From Escherichia coli (lineage in GTDB: Bacteria; Pseudomonadota; Gammaproteobacteria; Enterobacterales; Enterobacteriaceae), in NCBI GenBank assembly GCA_025544715.1, contig GCA_025544715.1_4109.3: a stretch of 64,000 bases of DNA. One strand, written 5' to 3'. Below, in pieces: positions 17,609 to 23,585 of this stretch. The number at the start of each line of letters is the position of its first letter. The stretch's first letter is position 1. Below the pieces are notes generated by a model that saw only the letters and a program-made list of their open reading frames with translations, had not been told where the DNA came from and searched no databases. The position numbers were made by a program, and so were the translations under genes.

Positions 17609-18082
17609 TTACATGTATACTTTTTTTAAATCCTTAGAACAACGATCAAAAATTGTGTTTATGAATTCAACATCTTCGATAATATTCGAATCGTTAGCAA
17701 CATTTTCATTTCTTGTCGTATTCCTATATGTGTGTTCAGGATGATTGTATACCACCTTGACTACATTATTTAGGTCTATAAAATTTGACGTTTTTTGCGT
17801 ATAGGAAGCCTGAAGCTTGATGAGTTTACCATCATTCTCAAGATTGGTTTTATGAATTAGTTCTTCAATGCCAGTTAAATGGCTATAGCTATCTTTTTCT
17901 TTTACAAAAGTAATAGTAACAAGAACTGCTTTCTCATCTCCCATATCGGAAATGTTTTTTACAGCACTGATAATTTCTAAGTTTGAAAAATCTAATTCTT
18001 TAAGCATTTTACAAATATTTCCACAAAGTTCGATAAGTGATAATTTCTTCTCTGGTAACAGAAACTTCATTGCACTTAACAC
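17609..18082 (-). CDS. Hypothetical protein (157 aa; likely true start at 18007, 132 aa)
   Basis: Internal ATG at 18007 lies 1 nt past the upstream gene stop. Confidence 0.45.
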   Translation of the reverse strand: MLSAMKFLLPEKKLSLIELCGNICKMLKELDFSNLEIISAVKNISDMGDEKAVLVTITFVKEKDSYSHLTGIEELIHKTNLENDGKLIKLQASYTQKTSNFIDLNNVVKVVYNHPEHTYRNTTRNENVANDSNIIEDVEFINTIFDRCSKDLKKVYM

Positions 18083-18376: not shown

Positions 18377-18404
18377 AAAAAAAAGGACTTGAATACTCAA
18401 GTCC
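18377..18404 (-). terminator. Rho-independent terminator
   Basis: Hairpin GGACTTGA-loop-TCAAGTCC then T8. Confidence 0.65.
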
Positions 18405-18417
18405 CTATAATATCATA

Positions 18418-19074
18418 TCAATCATGTTTATTCAATTTCTTCTGTTCTTTTTTCAAAGCTTTCATATGACGACCAAACTCTCGAACATGCCATAGATGAT
18501 CGGTTTCCCATAATTCTTGACGTAACCTACGTTCTTCTAGTAGTTTCGACTTGTCAATGTTATTTTTCTTTTTTTGTACATTAAAGAAATTATTCATATG
18601 TTCTTGAAGAAGATTACGACCTTTAACTTTCTCAAGAAACTCATCAACTGTTTCAGTTTTATTAGAACGTAGTTGATTGCATTTGGAGCACATAGTATTA
18701 AAGTTTGTTTCTAAATCAGGACCACCCTTAGATGCCAGATGGTTGTGATCAACTGTCATCAACACTTCATAAAGACCACATACAGCATATACATTTAAAT
18801 GTGGTTTACCATATACTGGATCAGAACTAAATGAACGTTCAATGCGTACTTCAGTGGCTTCAATCCCACATGCCACGCATTTTGGATTCTTAACAAAAGT
18901 AAGAACTTTTTGTGGGAAATATCGAAAAGTAATACCATTTAAAGTATAACGTTTCATCTTAGTACTTCGTTGATTTAATTCGTCAAGAAGTGATAATTTT
19001 GTCGTATAGTAAACATGATATTTGTTCATTTTATTCCTTGATATTGATTTTAATATCTTTACCTTGTAAATCAC
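18418..19074 (-). CDS. HNH homing endonuclease (likely start at 19029)
   Basis: HNH motif DHNHLASKGG...N...CSKCN with flanking Cys pairs. Confidence 0.6.
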   Translation of the reverse strand: MIYKVKILKSISRNKMNKYHVYYTTKLSLLDELNQRSTKMKRYTLNGITFRYFPQKVLTFVKNPKCVACGIEATEVRIERSFSSDPVYGKPHLNVYAVCGLYEVLMTVDHNHLASKGGPDLETNFNTMCSKCNQLRSNKTETVDEFLEKVKGRNLLQEHMNNFFNVQKKKNNIDKSKLLEERRLRQELWETDHLWHVREFGRHMKALKKEQKKLNKHD

Positions 19075-19339
19075 GAATAGTTTTAATTAATGCATCATGT
19101 TTTAAAGCACATTCGTTGTATACTGCATCCCAACGAGTAAGTACTTTAAGAATTTCTGCACCATCATAACCTTTAAAACCATTTTTGTCAATCATAATTT
19201 TTTGTGGTAGAGGTGTATCATCATCACATCTTTCTAACAGAATTTCTTGTTTAATTGGTGCAGGGGATTGTAGTTTTACTTGTTCTGCACATCCACTTAT
19301 AATTAAAAAAGAAATAAACGGAACTAATAATTTTTTCAT
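19031..19339 (-). CDS. Outer-membrane lipoprotein, putative o-spanin
   Basis: Signal peptide with lipobox LIISGC; directly downstream of TM plus coiled-coil gene. Confidence 0.45.
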   Translation of the reverse strand: MKKLLVPFISFLIISGCAEQVKLQSPAPIKQEILLERCDDDTPLPQKIMIDKNGFKGYDGAEILKVLTRWDAVYNECALKHDALIKTIRDLQGKDIKINIKE

Positions 19340-19710
19340 TTGAATTTATTCCTCGCAGCTTGAGAATTTTGTTTTAGTTCATTCAGTACTTTTACACCAT
19401 CTTCATCTAAACATACATTCTTATAAACTTCACGTTCTACAATAAAAGGAACTTTTGTTTCAATAACTTTAGCATTATCTTCCATGATTTTTTTAGTTTC
19501 AAGGTAATTTTTTGCATTTTCTTGTTGCATTTTATCCAAGGCGGTATCAACTTTTTTAGCTATTTGTTGCTCTATGCTTTGTTGATAGCCACTGTAATAA
19601 GTATTAGCTTCCCAACCAGCATAAGCTGAACCGCCAATCAATAATACAAAAGAAATTGGTTTCCAAAATGGAATAAGAATTTTCGAAACAATTATTTCTA
19701 ACATACTCAT
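19336..19710 (-). CDS. Putative i-spanin (N-terminal TM, coiled-coil periplasmic domain)
   Basis: N-terminal TM helix, charged helical remainder; overlaps lipoprotein gene. Confidence 0.45.
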   Translation of the reverse strand: MSMLEIIVSKILIPFWKPISFVLLIGGSAYAGWEANTYYSGYQQSIEQQIAKKVDTALDKMQQENAKNYLETKKIMEDNAKVIETKVPFIVEREVYKNVCLDEDGVKVLNELKQNSQAARNKFK

Positions 19711-19763: not shown

Positions 19764-20183
19764 TTACAACATTTTTTGAATATGTTCTGCTAGTTCATAC
19801 AGCTTAGTTTCATTATTCTCGAACTTTTCATCAACTTGAACATTGAATTTTTCTTCTAGTTCCATGACCATTTCAATCCAATCAAGCCAATCAAAATTGA
19901 ATTTTTCTTCAACTTCCAATTTAGTAAGATTGAAGTTCGCTAATACATCATTCTCTGATGTATCAGAGTAACGAGTAGTGATGAATTTGACAATTTCTTT
20001 TTCAACATCGTTTAATTCACTAGTTTGATATTCTGGCTGAAGATACCACCATTCTCCCTTATTAATAGATTCCAATTCTTGTTTGATTTCATGCATTACT
20101 TTATAACGGTCAGTACTTTTATGAATAGAATTAACTTCTTGATTCAATACATGTAGTGCATTTTTAATACGTTCATTTAACAT
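19764..20183 (-). CDS. Acyl-carrier-protein-like protein with N-terminal extension; Ser to Trp at pantetheine site
   Basis: FDWLDWIEMVMELEEKFNVQVDEKF aligns with ACP helix II DSLDTVELVMALEEEF; codon TGG at Ser position. Confidence 0.5.
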   Translation of the reverse strand: MLNERIKNALHVLNQEVNSIHKSTDRYKVMHEIKQELESINKGEWWYLQPEYQTSELNDVEKEIVKFITTRYSDTSENDVLANFNLTKLEVEEKFNFDWLDWIEMVMELEEKFNVQVDEKFENNETKLYELAEHIQKML

Positions 20184-20195
20184 TTTATCACCTTA

Positions 20196-20226
20196 TAAAA
20201 AAAGAGAACTCCATATGAAGTTCTCT
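20196..20226 (-). terminator. Rho-independent terminator after 929-aa gene
   Basis: Hairpin AGAGAACT-loop-AGTTCTCT then T-rich tract. Confidence 0.6.
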
Positions 20227-20257
20227 AATTATACATAATTACTTTTTCTATGTCAAG

Positions 20258-23047
20258 TTATAAATCACGGAAACGATTTGGTGTGTTTAAACGGTACATT
20301 GAGTATAACCCCAATCCACGCATAATCTCACCTGCCCAGAAACCAAAAAACATACCATTATCAGTACCTTCTCTAACTGCTGGACTCCATGATCCATTCA
20401 TTGGGGAACTTGGATTTACAATAACATAATTCTTTTGAAGTTCTAAAACTAAGTTATCAGCGAGTGTCGTTAGACCTTCTATTTTACATCCAGCTAATCC
20501 AGCAGCACAAGCCCCAGCTAACCACAACCCACACATATGACCTGTAAAGTCCCAATCTGGTCCTTCAACTGTGCCATCTTTATTGAAGATTGTTGGTGAA
20601 CGACCATCATTATCTTTTTGAAATTGAATTAAAAAGTGAATCCAATTCTCACAAAAATCAACAAGATCTGCTGGTGGTTCGATTCCTCTTTCTGCAAGTT
20701 CTTGCCATGCTCTTGCAGCCCCAAAGAATGCACGAGGTTCATACCCGCTCCATGCTTGATCTCCCCAGTGTAGCATTGTGAACGTGTCTGGTTCACCATA
20801 TTTTAAGTTATCCCAGCGGTTCCAAACATATGCTTGTGCACATGGACCAACAGTACCGAATTGTTGAGTAAACCATGTTTGAGAATCTTTCATAAAGCTT
20901 AACATGTTGCCTAAACGTGTGTTATCTACTGGTTGGTCTTTAAAACAATATATCACTGGATACTGATAACCAGGATAAGGCAATCCACGCCAACCAGAAT
21001 ACTGATTCGCATACGGGTCAGTGATGTTAGAAAATGGTATTGTTCCAGGAGTGTAATGCAATGAGTTTAACAAATAATCTTTGATTACACAATCCCCTAA
21101 CTGTGCAGTATAAGGTGATTCACCTGCAATTGTTATTGAGAATGTCATGGTATAGTCATCACCGTCAGCATCCGTATATAATTCTGGAATGTCATTAATA
21201 CAATACCAATCAATTATTGCAGCAACACCATCTACTGGGGTTGTATCAGGTAAAATAGTAATATCTTCTAGCTCACTATAAACTGGTGCATCTGGTCTTG
21301 GATCAGAACTTGGATGATTTGGCTGATACCCAGATAAACGTAATGTATCAGAACTTAGTGTGATAGTAGTCCATTCCCCGTGTGTTGCAGGAATCATCCA
21401 CCACCATCTCCAACCATTATCATCTACAATTCGTATATTATAATCATCTTCATATGAACGATATGTGAAAGATTTAACTTCAGACTTATTTGTTGCTAAT
21501 AACCAAAATCCAATAACAGCACCATCATCTTCACCACAAACCAACTGATTAATTGTATCGCGTCTTGTGATTAATATATCAGTACTATATAACATTTCTG
21601 ATGTAGCTGCACCATAAGGAACAACAATTCTACTATCAGCAATTATATAAGGGGAACCATCTGCTTTCTTTTCTCTAACAAATGCACTTAAAGGTGTTAA
21701 TGAATGTGTGATATTTTGGTCTTTACTTTCTGGTAAGCCGCAACGATAACGAACAACATCATGGTCATTTTTTGTTTTTGACAATTCCAGTACTGGTTTA
21801 AATGATAACGGTTTACCATCATCGCACACGCCACCATAGTCAACTAGCAATTTTGAATCAGCATTTACCCTGAACCAAATAGCTTGTTGCTCCATCGTAC
21901 TCTGTGCACTTTGGTCTTGTCTGATAGTAATGTATCCTAACGAATTTCTACCAAACTTAGCAATAGCATCACTTGGATAAAAATATTCATAGGAAATACC
22001 ATCAGTGAATGGTGTGGTTACAATTGTACTTTGTCTGAAAAATTTATCTCTGGAGTCGATATCACCATAAGCATAGCATGTGAGTAGTGAACATTTCCAA
22101 CCCAAATAATGTTTTCTTTCTTTAGTTATTTTATATAACAAATACGAAGCATCACTGAACCATAATTCTGCATCTGATGCGTTATCAGCAAATTCTAAAT
22201 TAATTGGAACATGAAGTGGGCGGTTGTGTTGCATTTCATTTCGTTGAATTATTACACCACCATATTCTACTGGTTGACGATTAGCAAAATTTAATTTATA
22301 TACACCATTAATTGTTGTATTCTTTAATTGAACAGTTCCTTTTTCAGATTCGTCAAAACCTTCTGCTAAAATATTACCATCCCAGTCGATTTTTCTACCC
22401 ATGAAATCAATAACCCAGTCAACATCATATTGTTCACCTGGTGTATCCCAATCAACACTACCATCTGGTAATAAAGCTTTTACTGACGCATTTATTTGGT
22501 TCCATGCTAAAGCACCTTTGAATGCAAATGTCACTTTATCCAAGAACTGACCATAATATGGTGCACCATGTGGTATTTTGCATTGACCATTAGTAAATGT
22601 AAATTCTACTCCCTTGAAACCACCATGTGTGGGCCAGCCATCATCAGCTAAAGGCCAGTTAGCCAATATAGGTTCTTTTGCATTAACTATCCAGTTACAT
22701 TGTAGCGGTGTAGGTGGATCTGGTAATTCACGTCCAGCATAAAAGTACTGATGATATGCGTCCCAATACCACTTTGCCTTATCTAAAAACATTGGATCAT
22801 TTGTAGCCAGATATGCATAAATGTATCCTAAAATTAATAGACTTTGACCTTCTGTTGTCCCGTCACCGTTTGGTTGACCTTCCATTGCAGAATAGTTAAT
22901 AAAATGGCGGTTGTTCGCCAAAACACCCTGATTGTTCACCACATAATGCTGTACTGTTGGGTCTATTGTATCACCAGTATTTCTTTCAATAAATTTGTGA
23001 TGCCCATAAAGAAGTTGTACAATATTATCAATATTATTGTTTAACAT
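20258..23047 (-). CDS. Large protein (929 aa), unknown function; possible glycosidase-like or virion-associated
   Basis: Long ORF; Trp/Gly-rich C-terminal region; followed by terminator. Confidence 0.55.
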   Translation of the reverse strand: MLNNNIDNIVQLLYGHHKFIERNTGDTIDPTVQHYVVNNQGVLANNRHFINYSAMEGQPNGDGTTEGQSLLILGYIYAYLATNDPMFLDKAKWYWDAYHQYFYAGRELPDPPTPLQCNWIVNAKEPILANWPLADDGWPTHGGFKGVEFTFTNGQCKIPHGAPYYGQFLDKVTFAFKGALAWNQINASVKALLPDGSVDWDTPGEQYDVDWVIDFMGRKIDWDGNILAEGFDESEKGTVQLKNTTINGVYKLNFANRQPVEYGGVIIQRNEMQHNRPLHVPINLEFADNASDAELWFSDASYLLYKITKERKHYLGWKCSLLTCYAYGDIDSRDKFFRQSTIVTTPFTDGISYEYFYPSDAIAKFGRNSLGYITIRQDQSAQSTMEQQAIWFRVNADSKLLVDYGGVCDDGKPLSFKPVLELSKTKNDHDVVRYRCGLPESKDQNITHSLTPLSAFVREKKADGSPYIIADSRIVVPYGAATSEMLYSTDILITRRDTINQLVCGEDDGAVIGFWLLATNKSEVKSFTYRSYEDDYNIRIVDDNGWRWWWMIPATHGEWTTITLSSDTLRLSGYQPNHPSSDPRPDAPVYSELEDITILPDTTPVDGVAAIIDWYCINDIPELYTDADGDDYTMTFSITIAGESPYTAQLGDCVIKDYLLNSLHYTPGTIPFSNITDPYANQYSGWRGLPYPGYQYPVIYCFKDQPVDNTRLGNMLSFMKDSQTWFTQQFGTVGPCAQAYVWNRWDNLKYGEPDTFTMLHWGDQAWSGYEPRAFFGAARAWQELAERGIEPPADLVDFCENWIHFLIQFQKDNDGRSPTIFNKDGTVEGPDWDFTGHMCGLWLAGACAAGLAGCKIEGLTTLADNLVLELQKNYVIVNPSSPMNGSWSPAVREGTDNGMFFGFWAGEIMRGLGLYSMYRLNTPNRFRDL

Positions 23048-23048
23048 A

Positions 23049-23585
23049 TCATACTCCTGCTCTAATTAATGCACCGTACCATGTAACTCCTTTATCATAT
23101 GTTTCTAATGAAATAATATCTTTTTCACCAATTTCATAAGAAAGAACAACTGGTCTATTATATGACCATTTAACATTTGAACCCCAATTAACGAGGTTAG
23201 ACCCTGTTTGCTGAGTTAATAGGATAGTAATTGAATAAACTTCAGTAGGAGCAGCACCAATAGCAATAGTGGTATTTCTGTCAGATAAATTAATATTAAA
23301 AACTGTATTACCTGATAGGGGATTAATTAAAATATTATTAGAACTCAATACATTATATAACTTGTTACTAGCACTATCATACAATGTTACCCATTCTGTT
23401 TCATGATTCTCATTAGTAGCTTTAGCTTTTATTTTTACATTATTTTCGGAAGAAGTCATTCCAGTCCAGCCAGAAATAATAAAAGAACTGTTTTTATTTG
23501 TTCCAAATGATGCAATTACCGAATCACTAAGAGAACTATCTTCACCGTCAATAGATCCGAGTACTGACAATGTTAAAACCATCAT
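23049..23585 (-). CDS. Hypothetical beta-rich protein (178 aa), possibly fibre-like
   Basis: Ser/Thr/Asn-rich composition. Confidence 0.45.
   Translation of the reverse strand: MMVLTLSVLGSIDGEDSSLSDSVIASFGTNKNSSFIISGWTGMTSSENNVKIKAKATNENHETEWVTLYDSASNKLYNVLSSNNILINPLSGNTVFNINLSDRNTTIAIGAAPTEVYSITILLTQQTGSNLVNWGSNVKWSYNRPVVLSYEIGEKDIISLETYDKGVTWYGALIRAGV

Follow-up and report, generated by a model that had tools for sequence, protein, structure and literature searches.

A jumbo coliphage acyl carrier protein-like protein with tryptophan in place of the phosphopantetheine-attachment serine, a candidate cofactor-independent mimic of host AcpP

We analysed a 64,000-nucleotide stretch of an Escherichia coli assembly (GCA_025544715.1, contig GCA_025544715.1_4109.3), hereafter the window. 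At about 97% identity it matches genomes of Asteriusvirus, the 121Q/PBECO4-like jumbo coliphages, whose genomes measure about 350 kb. On its minus strand the window encodes a protein of 139 aa (19764..20183, stop codon included) that joins a predicted helical hairpin to an acyl carrier protein (ACP) fold, and in which the serine that would carry phosphopantetheine is replaced by tryptophan. The reading that we prefer, and consider about evenly balanced, is that the protein is a cofactor-independent pseudo-ACP that acts through its recognition helix, most likely by mimicking the AcpP of the host. The open reading frame is covered over its full length by phrog_18343 (E 5e-59) and has orthologues of 95-99% identity that include 121Q gp510, phAPEC6 gp313c and Sharanji gp448. 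A tblastn search with the protein matched 51 phage records.

A first-pass annotation made from the nucleotide sequence had proposed that the C-terminal part of the protein is ACP-like, and had suggested a search against the PP-binding profile. Taken singly, the window sequence did not reach the curated cut-offs of the ACP models: Pfam PP-binding_2 matched with E 6.8e-4 and 20.3 bits (cut-off 32), and TIGR00517 with E 4e-5 and 23.4 bits (cut-off 70.45). The PHROG families annotated as acyl carrier protein matched the single sequence at about 1e-6, and solved ACPs in the PDB did so at E about 2e-3 (HMMER) with Trp99 aligned opposite the serine of the D-S-L motif, a pairing that was also returned by local alignment to E. 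coli AcpP. A profile of the family built from 35 diverse relatives matched type II ACPs in the PDB across the whole ACP domain with E about 2e-14, its positions 58-136 aligning with residues 3-74 of a 77-aa solved ACP. As judged by these profile comparisons, ACP homology is clear at the family level, where the match was decisive, although the single sequence falls below the curated thresholds. When 1.84 billion representatives were searched with the profile, 3315 matches were obtained at E <= 1e-3; among the matches listed, those beyond the full-length family members were mostly proteins of 70-100 aa aligned over the ACP domain.

Structure prediction, another approach that the first-pass annotation had recommended, pointed the same way. 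The AlphaFold model begins with a helical hairpin (H4-18 and H23-41), from which a linker of low confidence leads to a four-helix bundle, and all of the best 50 Foldseek matches were ACPs, with target TM-scores mostly of 0.6-0.78. The pLDDT was 82 overall and 86-93 over helices II-IV; the pTM was 0.59, and the geometry between the two domains is uncertain. The ACP domain (residues 59-139; 19767..20009, minus strand) is thereby predicted to adopt the four-helix-bundle fold of carrier proteins, and its second helix carries the acidic residues D98, D101, E104 and E110 at the places of D35, D38, E41 and E47 in AcpP. In the model helix II spans residues 99-113, of which Trp99 is the first, at the site of Ser36 in AcpP. 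Per-column conservation and alignments to ACPs place the recognition helix at residues 98-113 (DWLDWIEMVMELEEKF; 19845..19892, minus strand), and the region around it reads FNFD-W-LDWIEMVMELEEKF.

The N-terminal extension, for which about 60 aa had been proposed, is real and conserved; it measures approximately 58 aa (residues 1-58; 20010..20183, minus strand) and is predicted to form the helical hairpin and linker, with an R26-Y27 motif inside. No match to the N-terminal 55 residues was found in Pfam or the PDB. We also considered whether this domain might be an LYR-type ACP-binding module and dropped the idea, as there was no Pfam Complex1_LYR match at E <= 10 and no PDB match for the N-terminal part of the profile. 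The protein has neither a transmembrane segment nor a signal peptide (highest 19-residue hydropathy 0.06) and is soluble. Its pI is 4.7 (4.3 for the ACP domain) and it contains 30 acidic residues. Such acidity would suit a nucleic-acid mimic or anti-defence protein that puts the ACP scaffold to a new use, as a negatively charged decoy of a DNA-binding or immune protein of the host, and the equivalent region of 121Q is rich in genes of takeover type, with functions in nucleotide metabolism, RNA repair and NAD/ADP-ribose metabolism (Sir2, Nudix and macro domain). We think this explanation very improbable: conservation singles out the residues of the ACP recognition helix and follows no general charge pattern, PADLOC (a library of defence rather than anti-defence proteins) returned no match for the protein, and no support was found in the literature.

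The replacement of serine by tryptophan was verified by reading codon 99 directly; it is TGG (19887..19889, minus strand; CCA on the plus strand), and Trp99 stands in the place of AcpP S36 in the alignments to solved ACPs and to AcpP. Because the attachment residue is Trp99, pantetheinylation at the canonical site is ruled out for the protein as encoded, in agreement with what the first-pass annotation had argued. The motif contains no second Ser or Thr, and the closest serines (S73 and S76) sit in loop I. In the 12 genomes in which the codon was read, the window included, it was TGG (Trp) in the window, 121Q, Sharanji, phAPEC6, fEgEco12, TH47 and vB_Ec-M-J, TCA (Ser) in UE-S1, A4 and CBB, ACA (Thr) in RaK2 and AAC (Asn) in JNE01, and the reading frame was intact throughout. 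Tryptophan was also present in six further protein clusters (P0001-P0004, P0006 and P0007). A sequencing error that changed TCG to TGG, the alternative that had been raised at the outset, is excluded because TGG occurs in seven independently sequenced genomes and Trp in the six further clusters.

About 60 full-length family members were recovered from three protein searches and the search of representatives, all of which had the N-terminal hairpin and the ACP domain. The window protein matches this family over its full length, including the R-Y motif of the hairpin and the D-x-L-D of the ACP domain. A scan of IMG/VR with the family alignment returned only three reference genomes, all of them already known. 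These searches show that the family that joins this N-terminal extension to an ACP domain (phrog_18343 and relatives) is confined to RaK2-like jumbo phages. Conservation was counted over 37 representatives of less than 80% identity. D98 was invariant (37/37), D101 and E110 were each present in 36/37, L100, E104 and M107 each in 34/37, and F113 in 30/37; in the N-terminal domain R26 was found in 34/37 and Y27 in 31/37, with Phe in a further five. By alignment the seven ACP-domain positions (D98, L100, D101, E104, M107, E110 and F113) correspond to D35, L37, D38, E41, M44, E47 and F50 of AcpP, the helix II residues through which AcpP contacts its partner enzymes. M44 of AcpP has been linked to SpoT, and F50 to the stability of the fold (PMC3340395).

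The attachment site itself was far more variable. Serine was present in 26 of the 37 representatives, Asp in four, Trp in two, and Asn, Thr, Glu, Lys and Ala in one each; Arg was also seen, in a relative of JNE01. Phylogenetic analysis divided the family into a "D-x-L-D-W" subfamily (Asteriusvirus, Alcyoneusvirus/RaK2 and metagenomic relatives) and a CBB/Eneladusvirus-like sister subfamily. Serine was found in only 4/14 representatives of the former, where S, W, T, N, R, E, D and K all occur at the site, compared with 22/24 of the latter (Fisher p = 1e-4, not corrected for phylogeny). The question of the first-pass annotation, whether related phages have Ser or Trp, thus has a mixed answer: Trp is shared by a clade of close relatives (the W clade), but the choice is not a binary one, with at least eight residues at the site and Ser still present in relatives 65-71% identical to the window protein. 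Because serine is so unevenly kept while the rest of the recognition helix stays fixed, the comparison shows the attachment site to be evolutionarily free in the "D-x-L-D-W" subfamily. The strong retention of serine in the sister subfamily suggests that the family probably began with a functional holo-ACP, which the AcpS of the host presumably modified, and this would make the present protein a derived pseudo-carrier. Since S, T, D and N are good helix N-cap residues, a preference for such residues may make part of the variation at this site structural rather than a sign of functional freedom, a point that weighs against the mimic.

Loss of the serine was not accompanied by decay. We estimated a dN/dS of 0.26 for a pair of genomes that both have Trp (the window and fEgEco12, about 30% divergent in protein sequence) and 0.27 for a pair that both have Ser (A4 and UE-S1), and the W clade, whose proteins differ by as much as about 30%, gave values of 0.18-0.29. 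These estimates show no relaxation of purifying selection upon loss of the serine, its inferred strength being equal with and without Ser. They speak, as do the intact reading frames and the recurrence of Trp in independent genomes and clusters, against a functionless, decaying remnant of a phage ACP or an artefact of TCG read as TGG, an explanation that could draw on the failure of the single sequence to reach the curated ACP cut-offs and that we find barely credible. Moreover, the Ser-bearing relatives use TCA, which is two substitutions away from TGG with TCG as the sole stop-free intermediate. Two neighbour-joining trees conflicted over the monophyly of the W clade, a conflict explained by intragenic recombination because the two halves of the gene have different nearest relatives. 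In its ACP-coding half the window falls among the other Trp genomes, at 80-82% nucleotide identity compared with 72% to UE-S1 and 69% to A4. In the N-terminal half, by contrast, the window sides with the Ser-bearing UE-S1 (87%), and fEgEco12 with the Ser-bearing A4 (88%). This pattern fits a Trp allele that arose once and was then recombined into two N-terminal backgrounds.

Upstream of the ACP-like gene lies a gene for a 929-aa tail or tail-fibre protein (20258..23047, minus strand; phrog_2871 tail protein). It belongs to a variable tail-protein cassette that is absent in fEgEco12, vB_Ec-M-J and UE-S1, and is no conserved neighbour. Two bases past the tail-protein stop codon a promoter scan identified a consensus sigma-70 promoter-like site, TTGACA-17-TATAAT, with 12/12 matches (20228..20256, minus strand). 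It is followed by a 10-bp hairpin and T-run resembling an intrinsic terminator for the upstream tail-protein gene (20194..20226, minus strand), which overlaps the expected transcription start, and by a Shine-Dalgarno sequence, AGGTG, 5 nt ahead of the ATG (20189..20193, minus strand). The expected start falls within the 5′ arm of the hairpin, and for this reason read-through from the tail gene would be expected to make a full terminator and transcripts begun at the promoter only a weak stem. Related -35/-10 pairs were found in 121Q, Sharanji, UE-S1, A4 and JNE01; the stem differs in sequence in JNE01 and remains self-complementary, and in A4 the arms are not fully complementary. The whole module is missing where the gene abuts the upstream open reading frame, as in fEgEco12, RaK2 and CBB. 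A search for transcriptomic data on Asteriusvirus returned none.

Downstream, the ACP-like gene is followed by a gene for an Rz-like i-spanin of 124 aa with an N-terminal transmembrane segment (19336..19710, minus strand; phrog_1152, E 6.6e-29, and the RefSeq annotation of 121Q gp511) and, overlapping its stop codon, a gene for an o-spanin candidate of 102 aa with the lipoprotein signal ...LIISGC (19031..19339, minus strand; phrog_2425, and annotated as an Rz-like spanin in vB_Ec-M-J). The spanins of 121Q/PBECO4 have been listed previously (PMC6139136). The third downstream gene encodes an HNH endonuclease (18418..19029, minus strand; phrog_23285, E 1.8e-128, and Pfam HNH) and is probably a mobile insertion; it is missing at this place in the CBB-like genomes L004, L017 and L018 and lies behind the spanins in some lineages. 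A terminator-like hairpin after the HNH gene (18383..18406, minus strand) marks the end of what is predicted to be a single transcription unit of the ACP-like, i-spanin, o-spanin and HNH genes.

The order ACP-like gene, i-spanin, o-spanin was kept in every genome examined, down to less than 20% protein identity (121Q, Sharanji, RaK2, CBB, JNE01, fEgEco12, UE-S1, A4, vB_Ec-M-J and three metagenomic or Erwinia-phage contigs), and the ACP-like gene occupies a conserved slot downstream of a block that includes an RlaP-type nucleotidyltransferase. Together with the predicted shared transcription unit, and with the same proximity remarked upon for Eneladusvirus (PMC7760394), this order would favour a lysis accessory, a partner of the Rz/Rz1-type spanins that might, for instance, regulate or chaperone the i-spanin, or the maturation of the o-spanin lipoprotein, from the cytoplasm. 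We regard such a role as improbable. The linkage to the spanins is suggestive and is not independent evidence, because all of the genomes examined are collinear relatives; the adjacency also fails as an independent association in the Ackermannviridae, where nine genes lie between the ACP-like gene and the spanin (IME250). That linkage is the sole lysis-cassette feature of a protein that has no membrane or periplasmic signal, whereas spanins work in the periplasm, and the LysM-lysozyme endolysin candidate lies about 9 kb from the ACP-like gene. Spanin maturation by Lgt, LspA and Lnt, furthermore, draws on phospholipids and not on acyl-ACP. The constant place before the spanin genes nevertheless hints at a link with lysis that the mimic model leaves unexplained.

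Genes that would serve an acyl carrier were not found nearby. No lipid, phosphopantetheinyl-transferase or acyltransferase genes are annotated in the approximately 64 kb of 121Q equivalent to the window, and none was present among the ten neighbours scanned. The possibility of a phage-encoded AcpS-type phosphopantetheinyl transferase was pursued by tblastn with E. coli AcpS (a query validated by its match to an annotated phage acpS), and was rejected in that the search was negative in all enterobacterial jumbo phages.

Published virion proteomics bear on whether the protein is a component of the particle. In phAPEC6, gp313c was not among 62 virion proteins, and the adjacent tail fibre gp314c was detected (PMC7247149). 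Mass spectrometry of Eneladusvirus virions reported a protein labelled by its authors as an acyl carrier protein, encoded near a spanin-like gene and treated as an ordinary ACP (PMC7760394), an observation that would count against the mimic if that protein is the orthologue. A further explanation that we weighed is a structural adaptor, in which a complex encoded by the phage would use the ACP fold as a small acidic subunit, with no link to the clients of host AcpP, its prosthetic group having become dispensable for assembly in one subfamily. For this there are precedents in mitochondrial complex I, the trypanosome mt-SSU assemblosome and the Ycf2-FtsHi motor. We consider it unlikely, given that the protein was not detected in virions of phAPEC6, the closest relative studied, that the promoter is predicted to be of early type, and that no co-varying phage partner was identified.

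The cofactor-independent mimic of AcpP is the reading that we favour. The pseudo-ACP, an approximately 58-aa helical hairpin fused to an ACP fold, is under selection and probably expressed; its transcription, together with both spanin genes, is predicted to start from the consensus sigma-70, early-type promoter. We infer that it would work by binding partner proteins with its ACP recognition helix and not by acyl carriage. In the least certain step, a host enzyme or another phage protein would have its AcpP-binding site filled by the pseudo-ACP, by analogy with the inhibition of E. coli glycerol-3-phosphate acyltransferase by unmodifiable apo-ACP. A second contact, or oligomerisation, could come from the N-terminal hairpin. 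The first-pass annotation had offered a decoy or inhibitor of the host partners of ACP, or an acidic scaffold, and either is consistent with the sequence evidence. Bearing on these proposals are the conserved recognition helix, the serine site that is free in the subfamily, the purifying selection that continues without Ser, the lack of phosphopantetheinyl transferase or acyl-ACP enzyme genes found nearby and the consensus sigma-70 promoter upstream.

Some observations run against the mimic. It is drawn from conservation alone, and the serine of 22/24 sister representatives and of close relatives suggests that the ancestral and perhaps main function may need a holo-ACP, so that the role of the Trp form could be a derived or reduced one. 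On the side of the mimic stand precedents from E. coli: ACP(S36T) cannot be pantetheinylated and is a non-functional carrier (PMC3340395), and glycerol-3-phosphate acyltransferase is inhibited more strongly by apo-ACP than by holo-ACP (for review see PMC3896788). Apo-ACP is not bound by SpoT (PMC3896788).

The fold and the gene family are already known at the level of annotation, and our literature search for a serine-less phage ACP or a functional study found only mentions of that kind, none of which notes the missing serine or tests a function. To our knowledge, what is new is the loss of the serine, its repeated free replacement in one subfamily, the selection that persists after the loss and a parallel state in the Ackermannviridae sequences sampled. 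In GenBank, proteins of the window type are either labelled "hypothetical" or bear the names "acpP", "DltC", "acyl carrier protein" and "D-alanyl carrier protein 1"; in dozens of records these names imply a carrier function that is ruled out here, as do the labels of the four Ackermannviridae sequences that we read. The two subfamilies also make a clean evolutionary comparison, in which one keeps the serine and the other lets it drift with the recognition surface otherwise fixed. ACP is among the most connected of bacterial proteins and binds every enzyme of fatty-acid synthesis as well as enzymes of lipid A synthesis; MukB and IscS also bind it. SpoT is another of its partners (PMC3340395). 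The phage protein may target this interaction network, which is a clear and testable hypothesis, and an ACP fold selected without its cofactor site would reveal which ACP contacts the phage targets and provide a ready-made probe or inhibitor.

Compared with E. coli AcpP, the phage protein has Trp for Ser, an N-terminal helical extension of approximately 58 aa and a loop I that is five residues longer; as a single sequence it falls below the curated cut-offs, and no genes for a phosphopantetheinyl transferase or acyl-ACP enzymes lie near its own. The closest functional analogue, on which the mimic model rests, is ACP S36T or overproduced apo-ACP, likewise an unpantetheinylated ACP fold, which still binds clients and inhibits sn-glycerol-3-phosphate acyltransferase and growth (PMC3896788, PMC3340395). 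That form is a laboratory mutant or a state of overproduction, however, whereas the phage form is natural, selected and equipped with an added domain.

Among phage proteins, CBB gp163 and the homologues in Cronobacter phage GAP32 and Erwinia phage pEa_SNUABM_49 share with the window protein the two-domain architecture, the R-Y motif and the genomic slot (RlaP nucleotidyltransferase ... ACP ... i-spanin, o-spanin). They are only about 16-25% identical to it and differ in having the canonical D-S-L-D and in passing the Pfam PP-binding cut-off, and because of these two features they are probably pantetheinylated by host AcpS.

A different relationship is seen with the structural-subunit ACPs (SDAP/NDUFAB1 of complex I, mt-SAF32 and the ACP of Ycf2-FtsHi), in which the fold likewise serves protein-protein assembly and not the shuttling of intermediates. 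Most of these keep the serine and bind LYR-type partners through the acyl-pantetheine arm; no LYR-like partner or motif was found for the phage protein.

The "ACP" of the Ackermannviridae (Det7 gp45 and its counterparts in Vi01-like and Limestone-like phages and Serratia phage IME250) resembles the window protein in its N-terminal extension, its conserved acidic helix II and the absence of the attachment serine, the motif being G-D-E-L-D or G-D-D-L-D in 4/4 sequences read. The family matches 273 phage records and is annotated as ACP without comment. It is nonetheless a separate family, of approximately 107 aa, with another N-terminal region, no adjacent spanins and an acidic residue at the site. 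We raise, tentatively and with more doubt than conviction, the possibility that enterobacterial phages of at least two unrelated lineages, RaK2-like jumbo phages and the Ackermannviridae, have repeatedly converted an ACP that they had acquired so that it mimics host AcpP without a cofactor, keeping the recognition helix alone and blocking or redirecting an AcpP-dependent host process at takeover. Candidate targets of such a mimic are phospholipid synthesis via PlsB and lipid A synthesis, and MukB, another reported partner of AcpP, is a further candidate. If this were true, the two families would make up a class of phage factors for host takeover, or directed against the host, that is new and lies hidden under the annotation "acyl carrier protein".

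Comparison of the acyl carrier protein (ACP)-like gene (window positions 19764-20183, minus strand) with the corresponding loci of its relatives (L006, L011, L012 and L013) revealed that its two halves have different nearest relatives. The N-terminal half was closest to that of phage UE-S1 (87% nucleotide identity), and the half encoding the ACP fold was closest to fEgEco12 and TH47 (80-82% nucleotide identity). This discordance indicates recombination within the gene, small as it is, among Asteriusvirus lineages. We also noted several records of deviant length in the protein cluster P0004 and among the search hits H51, H52 and H60: the orthologue of Salmonella phage SD-15_S21, a member of P0004, is recorded as a 192-aa protein extended by read-through at its C-terminus, matches in SD-6_S16 and SD-1_S14 cover only 83-89% of the protein, the match in CMSTMSU is split in two pieces, and the BFVD entry A0A2Z5HFQ2 is 432 aa long with 69% identity to the query. 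Frameshifts, or artefacts of assembly or annotation, are the probable causes in those records.

A predicted promoter and terminator hairpin precede the ACP-like gene (positions 20194-20256, minus strand), with the hairpin beginning one base after a perfect match to the sigma-70 consensus, so that transcription would be expected to start within the 5′ arm of the hairpin. The segment looks like a compact module that would end the late tail transcript and begin a new one. Related modules were found in 121Q, Sharanji, UE-S1, A4 and JNE01, the last with a stem of different sequence that nevertheless keeps its self-complementarity. In the window, 121Q, A4 and JNE01, a tail cassette encoding a 929-aa tail protein and a 178-aa tail-fibre protein (positions 20258-23585, minus strand) lies between the RlaP nucleotidyltransferase gene and the ACP-like gene; among the loci compared (including L006, L011 and L014), the cassette is absent from fEgEco12, vB_Ec-M-J and UE-S1. 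In UE-S1, the promoter and a nearly identical stretch from the very end of the tail gene are still present, which suggests that it lost the cassette by deletion.

On the other side, in both Asteriusvirus and RaK2, the o-spanin gene is followed immediately by an HNH endonuclease gene (positions 18418-19029, minus strand). Since the same slot lacks this gene in CBB and in the Erwinia phage and metagenomic contigs L017 and L018, it probably arrived as a mobile insertion. In all related contigs examined, a gene for a DUF7325 protein (positions 17609-18082, minus strand; Pfam E-value 1e-54) is conserved at a distance of two to three genes downstream from the spanins; the 121Q RefSeq record labels its product "structural protein".

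The content of the surrounding 64 kb (approximately 1-64000) was read through its 121Q equivalent (L001, L022 and L023). Most ORFs are uncharacterised; those with assignments include many for RNA repair (RNA ligase, polynucleotide kinase, RlaP nucleotidyltransferase and CCA-adding enzyme) and many related to NAD or ADP-ribose (Sir2, two Nudix hydrolases and a macro domain), as well as an HPF/RaiA ribosome-hibernation homologue, PhoH and three ClpP/HslV-like proteases. By its predicted gene content, this is a neighbourhood of takeover or counter-defence style.

A different family, the approximately 107-aa "acyl carrier protein" of Ackermannviridae phages, matched 273 phage records by tblastn; we found neither a solved structure nor a functional study of it. 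The attachment serine is absent from all four sequences read, those of IME250 (L015:3857-4180), Det7 (L019:2501-2824), XF4 (L020:101-424) and PM10 (L021:101-412), where the motif is G-D-E-L-D or G-D-D-L-D and the helix II that comes after it is acidic and conserved. An acidic residue in the serine's place might mimic the phosphate group that holo-ACP carries.
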